31,318 nt of DNA from Candidatus Altiarchaeota archaeon (GTDB lineage Archaea > Altiarchaeota > Altiarchaeia > IMC4 > QMZM01), in NCBI GenBank assembly GCA_015523055.1, contig WALD01000037.1, positions 1 to 31,318 on the forward strand. Reading direction: 5' to 3'. A model generated the notes under the pieces. It ran no database searches, was not told the DNA's origin, and saw only the letters and a list, made by a program, of their open reading frames with translations. Position numbers and translations under genes: made by a program. Of this stretch, positions 10,853-13,957 are shown one piece after another (position 1 is the stretch's first letter; each line of letters starts with the position of its first letter).

Positions 10853-10942
10853 TCAATAGCATCCTCGATCCTCTCGACTAGATTTTATTCTTTCTTTACC
10901 CAAAATATCGCTAAGAAACTCTATATCCCCTCTTTTAGACAT
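10853..10942 (-). pseudogene. N-terminal stub of a DUF86/HepT-like toxin
   Basis: MSKRGDIEFLSDIL begins overlapping the MNT stop (TATGTCTAA), the usual MNT-HEPN junction. The frame then ends after 29 codons with no Rx4H motif. Confidence 0.55.
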
Positions 10943-11237
10943 AGACTGCACCCCTCTCAATATCCTCGGCAACCTGTTTAATCCTTATAGCCTTTATGCC
11001 CTCAGGAGTTAAGATATCTACCTTTCTGCCTACTTGTTTTTCGACATATTCCGCAAAATCCATAAACCTAAAACCTATTGGTTTTTCAAACTCTACTAAA
11101 ACATCTATATCGCTATCTTCTCTCTGGACTTCCTTTGCAAAGGAACCAAATAAGGCCATTCTCTTGACACCATACGTAGAACCTAAAGAGGGAAGCTCCT
11201 TTCTCAAGATCTCAATCACCTTTCCCGTGGTCAACAT
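10935..11237 (-). CDS. Minimal nucleotidyltransferase (COG1669-like MNT antitoxin)
   Basis: YGVKRMALFGSFAK...EDSDIDVLVEF...GRKVDILT. Likely start ATG 11237 (or 11252); the longer ORF-track start lies inside the IS end. Confidence 0.85.
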   Translation of the reverse strand: MLTTGKVIEILRKELPSLGSTYGVKRMALFGSFAKEVQREDSDIDVLVEFEKPIGFRFMDFAEYVEKQVGRKVDILTPEGIKAIRIKQVAEDIERGAVYV

Positions 11238-11291
11238 CCTTTCGTTTCCCATATCACGCACAGATTCCTGTGCTATCTGTTTTGATTTCAT

Positions 11292-11525
11292 CTTATCTGG
11301 GGGCAAGGAGACCCCCTTCCAAAAGGGTGGGGAGGATTACCCCTTTAACATCCTTTTTAGTGTTGAAGGCGATATATCAACCGTTGAAGCGGTTCTGCCA
11401 GTTTTCCAACGATCGGATAGCCGGTAAACCTATCTTTGCGTTCCAATGATGGTTTGGGTTTTAATGCTGTGCATCTTGATTCAACTCCTATGGAAAGCCC
11501 CTTCCGATAGGGAGGGGTAGTTTAC
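11292..11525 (+). mobile_element. Non-autonomous IS200/IS605-family miniature element (PATE/MITE-like), 234 bp
   Basis: Related subterminal hairpins CCCCTTCC-AAAA-GGGTGGGG (11313-11332) and CCCCTTCC-GATA-GGGAGGGG (11498-11517). Preceded by TTCAT, ends in TTAC, no target duplication. Removing it restores LHE in the MBL gene. Confidence 0.85.
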
Positions 11526-11751
11526 GCAATCCAACCCTTGCATTGGTCTTCTCCACCATCATGTGGTTGCCTGCAACATGGTCATAATGGCAGTGGGTGT
11601 TTATTAAAAGCTTGATTTCAATATTTATCTTAGCAATTTTTCCAATGTGGTGAAGGGGGCTTATTTCCGCATCAATCATTACTCCTTCTCTATCGTCAGC
11701 TATCACATAACAATTGGATTCATAGGTGTTGCTCATAAAGGTGTGAACCAT
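11488..11751 (-). pseudogene. Metallo-beta-lactamase-fold hydrolase, interrupted and truncated
   Basis: SNCYVI, GVMIDA, THCHYDH (HxHxDH). Homology stops at NARVGL, where the IS end supplies RKLPLPIGRGFP*. Confidence 0.8.
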
Positions 11752-11801
11752 ATTAGGATAAATGATTCGGTCAAGATTAATGCCCGATATTCATTCATTA
11801 T

Positions 11802-11889
11802 GCCGAGGTGGCGGAGCCTGGATCAACGCGCGGGCCTTGAGAGCCCGTGTCCCTTTGGGGACACTTGAGTTCGAATCTCAACCTCGGCG
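11802..11889 (+). tRNA. tRNA-Ser(UGA)
   Basis: GCCGAGG/CCTCGGC acceptor, CGGGC-CTTGAGA-GCCCG anticodon arm, long variable arm, TTCGAAT T-loop. CCA not encoded. Confidence 0.95.
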
Positions 11890-11906
11890 AACTGTCACCA
11901 ATGGAG

Positions 11907-12039: not shown

Positions 12040-12073
12040 ATTAAATCACATAACTTACAACCTCATTTTGAGA

Positions 12074-12685
12074 ATGACTGAAGAGAAAGACGAAGGGCAG
12101 AAGGGGACTGGAGAAAAGAAGACGGAGGGAGTAGAGTCAAAACCTGAGAGGGGGAAGGGGGCTCGGAAGGGAAAGCCCGATAAGATGGGATATCCCAATA
12201 AGGTTAAAGACGGATTCAGGCACAGGGTAAGGGTTTTGAGAGTTATCATTGATGGAAACCTTGACATTCAAAGGGCATTGATGAATATAAAGGGCATAGG
12301 ACAGCACATCTCAGAGGTAATCACAAAAGAGTTGAGTATCGATAAAAAGACGAAGATTGGGAGCCTCACGGACAAGGAAATAGAGAGGATTGAGAATGCA
12401 GTCAAGAATTTACAAAATAGTGCTCCTGGATGGATAGTAAACCGGCAGAGGGATCCATATTCTGGCAAGAATATGCACGTCGTGGGCCCTGATTTGGAAT
12501 TAACGCACAGGGAGGACATAAACCTCCAGAAGAAACTCAAGTCATATATTGGGATAAGACACGCCCTTGGTCTTCCTGTAAGAGGTCAGAGAACAAGGAC
12601 CTCATTCAGGAAGGGAGCAACAATGGGAGTCAGCAGAAAGAAGGCACAGCCACAGACAAAGAATAAAGATGGAGGTAAGAAATAA
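12074..12685 (+). CDS. rps13: 30S ribosomal protein uS13 with charged N-terminal extension
   Basis: FRHRVRV, IKGIG, NRQRDPYSG, YIGIRHALGLPVRGQRTRT. Confidence 0.95.
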   Translation: MTEEKDEGQKGTGEKKTEGVESKPERGKGARKGKPDKMGYPNKVKDGFRHRVRVLRVIIDGNLDIQRALMNIKGIGQHISEVITKELSIDKKTKIGSLTDKEIERIENAVKNLQNSAPGWIVNRQRDPYSGKNMHVVGPDLELTHREDINLQKKLKSYIGIRHALGLPVRGQRTRTSFRKGATMGVSRKKAQPQTKNKDGGKK

Positions 12686-13377
12686 TGGGTGCCCCCAGAA
12701 AACAGAGAAGGAAGTATGAAAGACCGACACACCCATGGAAGTCTGAAAGGATAACTGAGGAAAAGGAACTCTGCAAGAAATACGGCCTTAAGAACAGAAA
12801 GGAGGTCTGGAGGGTGAAGTCAAGGATAAGGAGATTCAGGCAGCAGGCACGAAACCTTCTTGCATCTTCAGGGGAGGAAATTATGAAGGAGAAGATGGGA
12901 TTTTTTAACAAACTAAAAAAATTGGGAATTTATGAGAATCCAAGCATTGAGGACCTTCTTACAATAAAGGCTGATGACCTCCTGGCTCGGCGGCTGCAGA
13001 GCCAGGTATACTCAAGAGGTATTGCAAAAACCATGAAAGAGGCGAGGCAGCTCATAACCCACAACCATGTGATTGTTGGAAACAGAATCGTTAACATTCC
13101 AGGCTATACTGTATCAAAGAGTGAGGAGGAAGGTATAAGGCTCAAGAAGGGTATGAGGGTTATCAAGCTCGGAGGAAAACCAGAGTCAGAGAAGGGAGCA
13201 AAAGAGGAAAAAATAGAAGAGCCCAATACAGAATCAAAAGAACCTGAGAAAGAGAAGAAGGGGAAGGAGCCTAAAGGGGATGAAAAACCCGGAGGAGAGA
13301 AGGTAAGGAGGAAATCAAAATCACAGGAGACTAAAAAGGAGGAAGCAAAGGAGGGTGGCGAAGGCAGAAAAGACTGA
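12685..13377 (+). CDS. rps4: 30S ribosomal protein uS4 with K/E-rich C-terminal extension
   Basis: [51 protein letters not shown]. Confidence 0.95.
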
Positions 13378-13957
13378 AACGGAAGCAAAGGAGGAAGAGA
13401 AGACTGAACCAGAGCAGGGGAAGGTTGAGGAAGTGAATGGAGAAAAGGTAGAGGCAAAGCCCGAAAAGAAGGTAGAGGATTTCAAGGGTAAGGTAGAAAC
13501 AAAGGAGAATATCGGAAAGAGGACAGAAGAAAGATCAGAATCCACACAATTGAAGGGTAGAAAAAAAGATAATAGATTCTGGGGAGTTCTCCACATATAT
13601 TCATCAAAGAACAATACAATCCTACACGTTACTGATATAACTGGGGCAGAAACTATAAGCATAAAATCAGGCGGGCAGGTAGTGAAGTCGCAAAGGGAGG
13701 AATCCTCGCCTTATGCCGCGATGCAGGCCGCGATGCGAATTGCTGATGAGATAAAGGAGAAGGGTATAACAGGGCTACATATACAGGTAAGGGCACCTGG
13801 CGGGCATAATGGTCCGAAGTATATTGGAAAGGGGGCACAGGCCGCAATAAGATCAATCTCAAGGAGTGGCATTGCAATAGGCAGAATAGAGGATGTAACC
13901 CCGATCCCCCATGGAGGATGTACCCCTAAAGGGGGAAGGAGAGGGAGGAGGGTTTAG
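13355..13957 (+). CDS. rps11: 30S ribosomal protein uS11 with E/K-rich N-terminal extension
   Basis: [55 protein letters not shown]. Confidence 0.95.

Follow-up and report, generated by a model that had tools for sequence, protein, structure and literature searches.

A gene-less IS200/IS605-type element in an altiarchaeal genome is very likely an internal-deletion derivative of a TnpB-only transposon and keeps its omegaRNA scaffold

Positions 11292 to 11525 of the window, the whole 31,318-nucleotide stretch of DNA analyzed here, hold a 234-bp element that is very likely a PATE/MITE derived by internal deletion from a TnpB-only (IS1341-type) member of the IS200/IS605 family, keeping the ends and the omegaRNA scaffold of its parent. 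We observed its anatomy, its copies and its parent in the same genome, conservation of the target site, covariation in the RNA, and an empty site in relatives. The window is contig C37 of an archaeal MAG (G000) of 0.97 Mb in 109 contigs that is 85% complete. The element and its surroundings comprise the following features:

10935-11291, minus strand: nucleotidyltransferase (MNT-type) gene or its 5' region (Pfam NTP_transf_2, 1.1e-14), abutting the left end of the element
11287-11291, plus strand: TTCAT target/transposon-adjacent motif (TAM), belonging to the flank and lying outside the element
11292-11525, plus strand: whole non-autonomous element, 234 bp, its edges being the limits of similarity to the copies on C66, C35, and C103
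11292-11385, plus strand: left-end module, matching the left end of C103 at 90% identity as far as the tnpB start codon
11308-11311, plus strand: left DNA guide GAGA, directly 5' of the left hairpin
11313-11320 with 11325-11332, plus strand: left subterminal hairpin CCCCTTCC-AAAA-GGGTGGGG, with compensatory changes across the family
∼11354-11360 and ∼11371-11378, plus strand: AT-rich boxes of the tnpB promoter region (putative promoter role)
11386-11397, plus strand: deletion junction in place of ∼1.1 kb of tnpB coding sequence, with no counterpart in C103
11398-11525, plus strand: right-end module and predicted omegaRNA scaffold, ∼128 nt, 95% identical over 105 nt to C103 (tnpB 3' end plus right end)
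11416-11420 with 11430-11434, plus strand: helix 1 of the predicted scaffold, loop CCGGTAAAC
11464-11467 with 11471-11474, plus strand: helix 2 of the predicted scaffold
11494-11497, plus strand: right DNA guide AAAG, directly 5' of the terminal hairpin
11498-11505 with 11510-11517, plus strand: terminal hairpin CCCCTTCC-GATA-GGGAGGGG, near-identical to the left hairpin
11522-11525, plus strand: cleavage motif TTAC at the right end
11526-11545, plus strand: predicted omegaRNA guide segment, following immediately 3' of the right end, the position found in characterized TnpB systems (PMC10055086)
11526-11751, minus strand: N-terminal 75 codons of a metallo-beta-lactamase-fold (MBL) gene (Pfam Lactamase_B, 1.6e-11), cut exactly at the TTCAT site

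The initial annotation had proposed an IS200/IS605-type non-autonomous element of 234 bp with both ends intact, and copies in the same genome do share its exact boundaries. The junctions read ...GATTTCAT/CTTATCTGGGGG...GGGGTAGTTTAC/GCAATCC, slashes marking the edges, with GTTTAC as the element tip; TTCAT on the left and GCAAT on the right form no direct repeat, so that the lack of a target duplication reported earlier is exactly what the sequence reads. Terminal inverted repeats are absent, and subterminal imperfect hairpins stand at both ends in the same orientation, the right one being followed by TAG and then by TTTAC, the 3' tip. A single-sequence DNA fold preferred a GGGGG..CCCCC stem at the left end, which is not conserved in the family, and the hairpin after GAGA was chosen.

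Searching the element's own genome at the DNA level, together with local BLAST, yielded two further mini copies, a parent, and one more right end:

C66:7969-8203, minus strand: diverged mini copy, 84% identical along its entire length and sharing the internal junction
C35:1-106, minus strand: left end with 100% identity across 106 nt, cut off by the end of the contig
C103:7649-8978 (locus L005:1506-2835): parent element of 1330 bp, its first ∼94 nt 90% and its last 105 nt 95% identical
C71:13232-13262: right end of a second element, 31 nt

Other copies and a parent had been suggested as a check on the proposal, as had TTCAT at every left junction. Both were found, the latter at four of four junctions (C37, C35, C66, and C103), which read GATTTCAT/, ATCTTCAT/, GGGTTCAT/, and ATTTTCAT/. 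Because TTCAT occurs only ∼3.8 times per kb, both strands counted, this coincidence is not due to chance. The right ends of the copies finish in GTTTAC/ and continue into unrelated sequence, and the flanks of the four copies are mutually unrelated and free of repeats. The element carries no open reading frame with a Pfam match and has no coding capacity, its ends are common to the C103 parent, and mini copies lie on C37, C66, and C35, all of which is expected of a PATE/MITE. The deletion, which spans the tnpB start codon to the beginning of the conserved block at ∼11398, has the same junction in the C66 copy and the C35 fragment, between different flanks, which indicates that the element moved as a mini-element. 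The perfect identity of the C35 fragment over its 106 nt points to a recent spread in that form. The mini-element also has the two AT-rich boxes that the parent and related elements carry upstream of tnpB. Two exact-pattern metagenome scans, one with the mini-element junction and one with the left-end hairpin, gave 0 matches each and hence no independent contigs bearing on the context.

The parent on C103 encodes a tnpB of 403 codons, whose product matches Cas12f1-like_TNB (PF07282) at 1.2e-8 in Pfam, with weaker matches below the cut-offs to RuvC_1 (PF18516) and OrfB_IS605 (PF01385); its nearest solved chain in the PDB is the TnpB 9nzp_A (1.4e-11), and its sequence shows the motifs GVDVN, IGIEKL, and NSDRKAS. 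The gene is intact except for a single in-frame TGA at codon 160 (R160), where homologues have Arg (AGA or CGN), making it either a recent pseudogene or a sequencing error. It is the only tnpB of its family in the G000 assembly. C103 and C108 share their terminal 15 nt (CGGTAAACCTATTGC), oriented so that the two contigs overlap, and are probably genomic neighbors; matches of 12 nt between the element and these contig ends were set aside, being just this overlap.

A back-translated query run against one genome per species found 27 loci of the same TnpB family at 49 to 79% identity, L028, whose TnpB is intact, being at 79%. They lie in MAGs of Altiarchaeota (the closest), Iainarchaeota, Asgard, Thermoplasmatota, Micrarchaeota, Nitrososphaeria, Bathyarchaeia, and Aenigmatarchaeota, plus two labeled bacterial. 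At the 20 loci with a readable start and upstream DNA, the left-end features fall within ∼170 nt upstream of tnpB, which leaves no room for a tnpA; judged from these sequences, the family arrangement is TnpB-only (IS1341-type). The family left ends consist of NTCAT, 14 to 16 nt, GA(G/A/T)A, and a hairpin whose stem is genome specific and yet paired; an automatic finder of left-end hairpins failed in about half of the loci, which were read by eye. The right ends follow the pattern GGAAAG-hairpin-TAGTTTAC. TTCAT as a conserved target motif, proposed from the window, is thus borne out by the four left junctions in G000 and by NTCAT in related archaeal elements.

The initial annotation had also applied the IS608-type rule by which bases of the tetranucleotide at the hairpin foot pair with cleavage-site bases, and both GAGA/TCAT and AAAG/TTAC had appeared to satisfy it. 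The comparison supports this at the right end. Two elements, L044 and the one on C71 of the same genome, combine CAAG in front of the hairpin with TGAC as the tip, the double change that pairing of guide base 1 with cleavage base −3 would predict, so that AAAG/TTAC and CAAG/TGAC covary, and AATG occurs with TTAC in the C66 copy, L028, and L042, a change at the base that the rule leaves free. At the left end, guide and target bases are invariant in the family, which is consistent with the rule and uninformative about it.

The C71 element carries a second tnpB, intact and of 370 aa (C71:12109-13221; L006:378-1490), whose product is 27% identical to the C103 TnpB. Its right end, CCCCTTCC-GTTA-GGGAGGGG TAGTTGAC, is nearly the same as those of C103 and C37, and its left hairpin, CTCCTCCC-TTTT-GGGAGGAG, is unlike theirs, a pattern that suggests either a shared resident transposase or an exchange of right ends between unrelated TnpB elements. 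In the sister genome G001, a copy at ∼828-1590 of C138 (L025) still has the beginning of tnpB (MQRAILLQTD) and a right end whose hairpin is compensated; an oppositely oriented gene for a 204-aa LAGLIDADG endonuclease (Pfam, 1.2e-18), adjoining an integrase-like ORF, has taken the place of the interior.

To look at the right end as an RNA, we built an alignment of 26 elements over their final ∼140 nt and predicted the common structure with RNAalifold, using shuffled alignments and slid pairing partners as controls. Three helices were found, with compensatory changes on both sides in 17 of the 19 pairs. Paired cells amounted to 93.9%, versus 72.5% in the shuffles, none of the 500 shuffles reached the observed values on any of five measures, and sliding the partners by 1 to 3 columns collapsed pairing to 25 to 52%. 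Helices 1 and 2 are located 50 to 110 nt inside the end, within the tnpB reading frame, and their covarying versions alter the encoded residues. Only these two helices are specific for a role as RNA, since the terminal hairpin is required in the DNA as well. The family consensus of helix 1 is GAGUCC-CUGUAAAC-GGACUC; the mini-element has a different stem, GAUAG-CCGGUAAAC-CUAUC (11416-11434), even though this segment no longer codes for protein, and it also retains helix 2 and the terminal hairpin, the last of which is kept in the C66 copy through two compensatory changes (CTCC..GGAG and GC..GC).

An omegaRNA (reRNA) is expected to have a conserved structure, to overlap the tnpB 3' end, and to stop at the right boundary, all of which is seen here. 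The suggestion that the element might supply a guide-type RNA therefore fits as far as capacity goes, the 26-sequence covariation showing that the full scaffold of the TnpB parent is retained, and expression of this RNA is predicted. The RNA-model check proposed alongside it gave no support, as Rfam returned nothing relevant for the window at gathering thresholds or for 11200-11620 at E values up to 10. The single-sequence RNA fold of the element is unremarkable (z = −1.65). The predicted guide corresponds to the antisense strand of MBL codons ∼84 to 90, and the genome contains no second TTCAT-flanked match to it.

A transposase for the element was sought with the Y1_Tnp profile, which found no intact TnpA in the 85%-complete G000 assembly. 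Its only match, at 25.6 bits, is a C-terminal remnant of 32 residues on C101 (C101:3770-3865, minus strand; locus L007:1465-1611), a lone 48-codon ORF covering the last 31 profile positions, situated between a glycosyltransferase gene and a form III-like RuBisCO gene and with none of the element's hairpins nearby. Neither the element nor the C103 parent contains a tnpA, and TnpA matches were found in 13 of the 40 relatives searched. The full-length TnpA of G001 is flanked by a different hairpin (CCCATGGGC..) and so does not point to the cognate transposase. The interior of the element had been read, at low confidence, as a decayed TnpA start (GKLAEPLQRLIY). This reading fails: the stretch is the reverse strand of the tnpB promoter and deletion junction, the family lacks tnpA, and the Y1_Tnp search gives no signal in the element.

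The right flank of the element is a broken MBL gene, visible as an 87-codon minus-strand ORF (11488-11751) that matches Lactamase_B. Its relatives in the same genus, of 226 aa in G002 and 233 aa in G001, are 73% and 69 to 70% identical to the window fragment, and in both genomes the gene lies between the genes for ribosomal protein S13 and ABCE1. At the position of the break they read VHE (GTG CAT GAA) without interruption. GTG CAT GAA is TTCAT plus the homologous right flank on the other strand, so the insertion site is real; a failure of relatives to read across this point had been named in advance as evidence against the element, and both genomes do read across it.

Deleting 11292-11525 changes the minus strand from ...ARVGL-RKLPLP to ...ARVGL-HEIKTDSTGICA-stop, as had been described, and the frame ends 12 codons after the restored junction, as had also been pointed out. 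The claim that precise excision restores the host codons does not hold, since the left flank is the 5' end of the MNT-type gene and the real C-terminus of the MBL is on C35; the HE codons are nothing more than the target motif, which is present in all left flanks. C35 begins with the identical left end followed by ATGAA, MBL residues 196 to 226, and then ABCE1, the order of these two genes being the ancestral one seen in G001 and G002. Its junction falls at a second CAT GAA, which corresponds to LHE, residues 193 to 195 of the G002 protein. Joining the N-terminal part of the MBL to the C35 flank gives an in-frame product that lacks ∼102 codons, and these codons are absent from the assembly.

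To the left, the MNT-type gene is followed by the gene for type-2 IPP isomerase (fni). Relatives have ABCE1 after the MBL gene and isopentenyl phosphate kinase (IPK) before fni, so that the adjacency of MNT/fni and MBL is not ancestral. In G002, fni and MBL are on different contigs, and in G000 the IPK gene is at the end of C98, a 2.7-kb contig. A 20-nt AG-rich similarity between this contig end and the MNT-fni spacer was too weak to use. The MNT-type gene has no HEPN partner beside it and sits between fni and the position that IPK has in relatives.

The window also has a tRNA-Ser gene between S13 and the MBL fragment. This 90-nt tRNA-Ser(TGA), at 11801-11890, was called by ARAGORN and not reported by the Rfam tRNA model at the gathering score; both tools detected the remaining two tRNAs of the window. 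Ribosomal proteins S13, S4, and S11 (12068-13957) have long Lys/Glu-rich extensions, N-terminal on S13 and S11 and C-terminal on S4; the S13 extension is also present in the same-genus relatives.

The context of C37 may thus reflect a mis-join through the repeat, recombination of identical copies, or an unbinned middle piece of the MBL gene lying between two copies. There is close to an even chance that C37 was wrongly joined through the repeat and that the true neighbor of the MBL N-terminus is the MBL C-terminus with ABCE1 on C35, which implies either that ∼102 codons were lost in frame between two CATGAA sites or that two elements surround a short unbinned piece. Such a join would agree with the ancestral order that follows the identical left end on C35, with the separate contigs of fni and MBL in G002, and with the position of IPK, the ancestral neighbor of fni, at the end of C98. 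It would also agree with a bin that contains no contigs shorter than 2010 bp, from which short repeat-flanked pieces would be dropped, and with the fact that two left flanks and only one right flank were assembled for this sub-lineage. Against it, the contig crosses the whole 234-bp repeat, and a real recombination between two identical copies would leave exactly the same sequence.

Whatever its context, the element could be a fossil, its scaffold inherited and no longer transcribed or used and the element itself immobile in G000, a possibility that we regard as substantial, if somewhat short of even. The cognate tnpB being a pseudogene, the survival of TnpA as a remnant only, the missing second guide target, and the divergence of the C66 copy to 84% identity all speak for it. 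Movement must nevertheless have been recent for two copies with different left flanks to be 100% identical, the helices of the noncoding copies are kept by compensatory changes, including those in the C66 terminal hairpin, and the unassembled 15% of the genome could hold a tnpA or tnpB. It is improbable that the right 128 nt are conserved solely for a transposase acting on single-stranded DNA, with no guide RNA involved: while IS608-type transposition uses the terminal hairpin, the AAAG guide, and TTAC as signals in the DNA (established for IS608 and summarized in PMC10055086), helices 1 and 2 covary 50 to 110 nt inside the end, beyond the known reach of IS608-type TnpA, and their position, overlapping the tnpB 3' end and stopping at the boundary, is that of characterized omegaRNAs. 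Hardly credible is an unrelated structured repeat (REP-like, a CRISPR remnant, or a small-RNA gene) that happens to resemble transposon ends, as nothing beyond the presence of hairpins suggests it and both ends, with the target motif, recur in a full-length TnpB element.

For a deletion derivative of a TnpB-only element, we infer mobilization by TnpA, transcription, and use by TnpB as follows. Having retained the GAGA guide with the left hairpin, the tnpB promoter region, and the last ∼128 nt of its parent, the element would move as single-stranded DNA by peel-and-paste, served in trans by a Y1 (HUH) TnpA, and would insert 3' of TTCAT without target duplication. The retained AT-rich boxes and promoter could drive a scaffold transcript of ∼140 nt that continues into the right flank (GCAATCCAACCCTTGC...) as the guide. 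This RNA may load a TnpB of the family made elsewhere and direct it to cut TTCAT plus flank, that is, the empty site, which would favor retention of the element. Present-day activity in G000 is doubtful because the cognate tnpB has a nonsense codon and TnpA is reduced to its 32-residue remnant, although the same left end between different flanks in two copies argues for recent movement.

A bolder version, which we consider rather unlikely, makes the mini-element a free-standing, self-promoted omegaRNA gene that is a parasite of both TnpB and TnpA, and adds recombination at the two CATGAA sites. If it were true, deletion of nearly the whole ORF would have fused the tnpB promoter to the scaffold, the TnpB of other elements would defend the insertion sites, and copies at two in-frame CATGAA sites would have recombined, deleting ∼102 codons or rearranging the chromosome.

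PATEs that carry omegaRNAs are a kind of element already described (Meers 2023), and the present one leaves the understanding of how they work unchanged. As an archaeal case of an IS200/IS605 derivative that has no genes and an entire guide-RNA scaffold it is a clean one, and it comes with precisely defined ends, TTCAT motif, and covarying RNA for a TnpB clade found in DPANN, Asgard, Thermoplasmatota, and Nitrososphaeria MAGs, which should be of use in annotating such elements and in picking compact TnpB/omegaRNA pairs to test. It is also a warning that C37 may be mis-joined or rearranged at the repeat and that the damage to the MBL gene exceeds a simple insertion.

PATEs of the IS200/IS605 family were named in Haloquadratum (PMC3119063) and also occur in Geobacillus stearothermophilus, in a study according to which PATEs often encode omegaRNAs that need TnpB in trans (PMC10055086). 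Like them, the present element is gene-less, has the ends and subterminal hairpins of a resident IS200/IS605 element, exists in several copies, shows no target duplication, and would depend on TnpA in trans. Unlike them, it stems from an archaeal TnpB clade with TTCAT as TAM, its deletion has brought the tnpB promoter region right up against the scaffold, and its assembly shows no active TnpA or TnpB partner.

With IS608 of Helicobacter pylori it shares a tetranucleotide 5' of the hairpin foot that fits the cleavage site by the 1/−3, 2/−4, 4/−1 rule. AAAG/TTAC is the motif pair at the left end of IS608, whereas here it is at the right and GAGA/TCAT at the left; the spacings of 16 nt from TAM to guide and 3 to 4 nt from hairpin to TTAC differ as well, as does the lack of a tnpA in the element.

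Among the elements of Meers 2023, TTCAT is the TAM of the ISGst5 IscB and not of a TnpB (PMC10055086). Compared with TnpB-omegaRNA systems of the ISDra2 and ISGst types, the present RNA is unrelated in sequence (no Rfam match) and the TAM differs, but the organization is the same: the scaffold overlaps the tnpB 3' end and ends at the transposon boundary, the guide would be read from the flank, the TAM is the target motif of the transposase, and the parent TnpB has RuvC-type and zinc-ribbon (TNB) domains.
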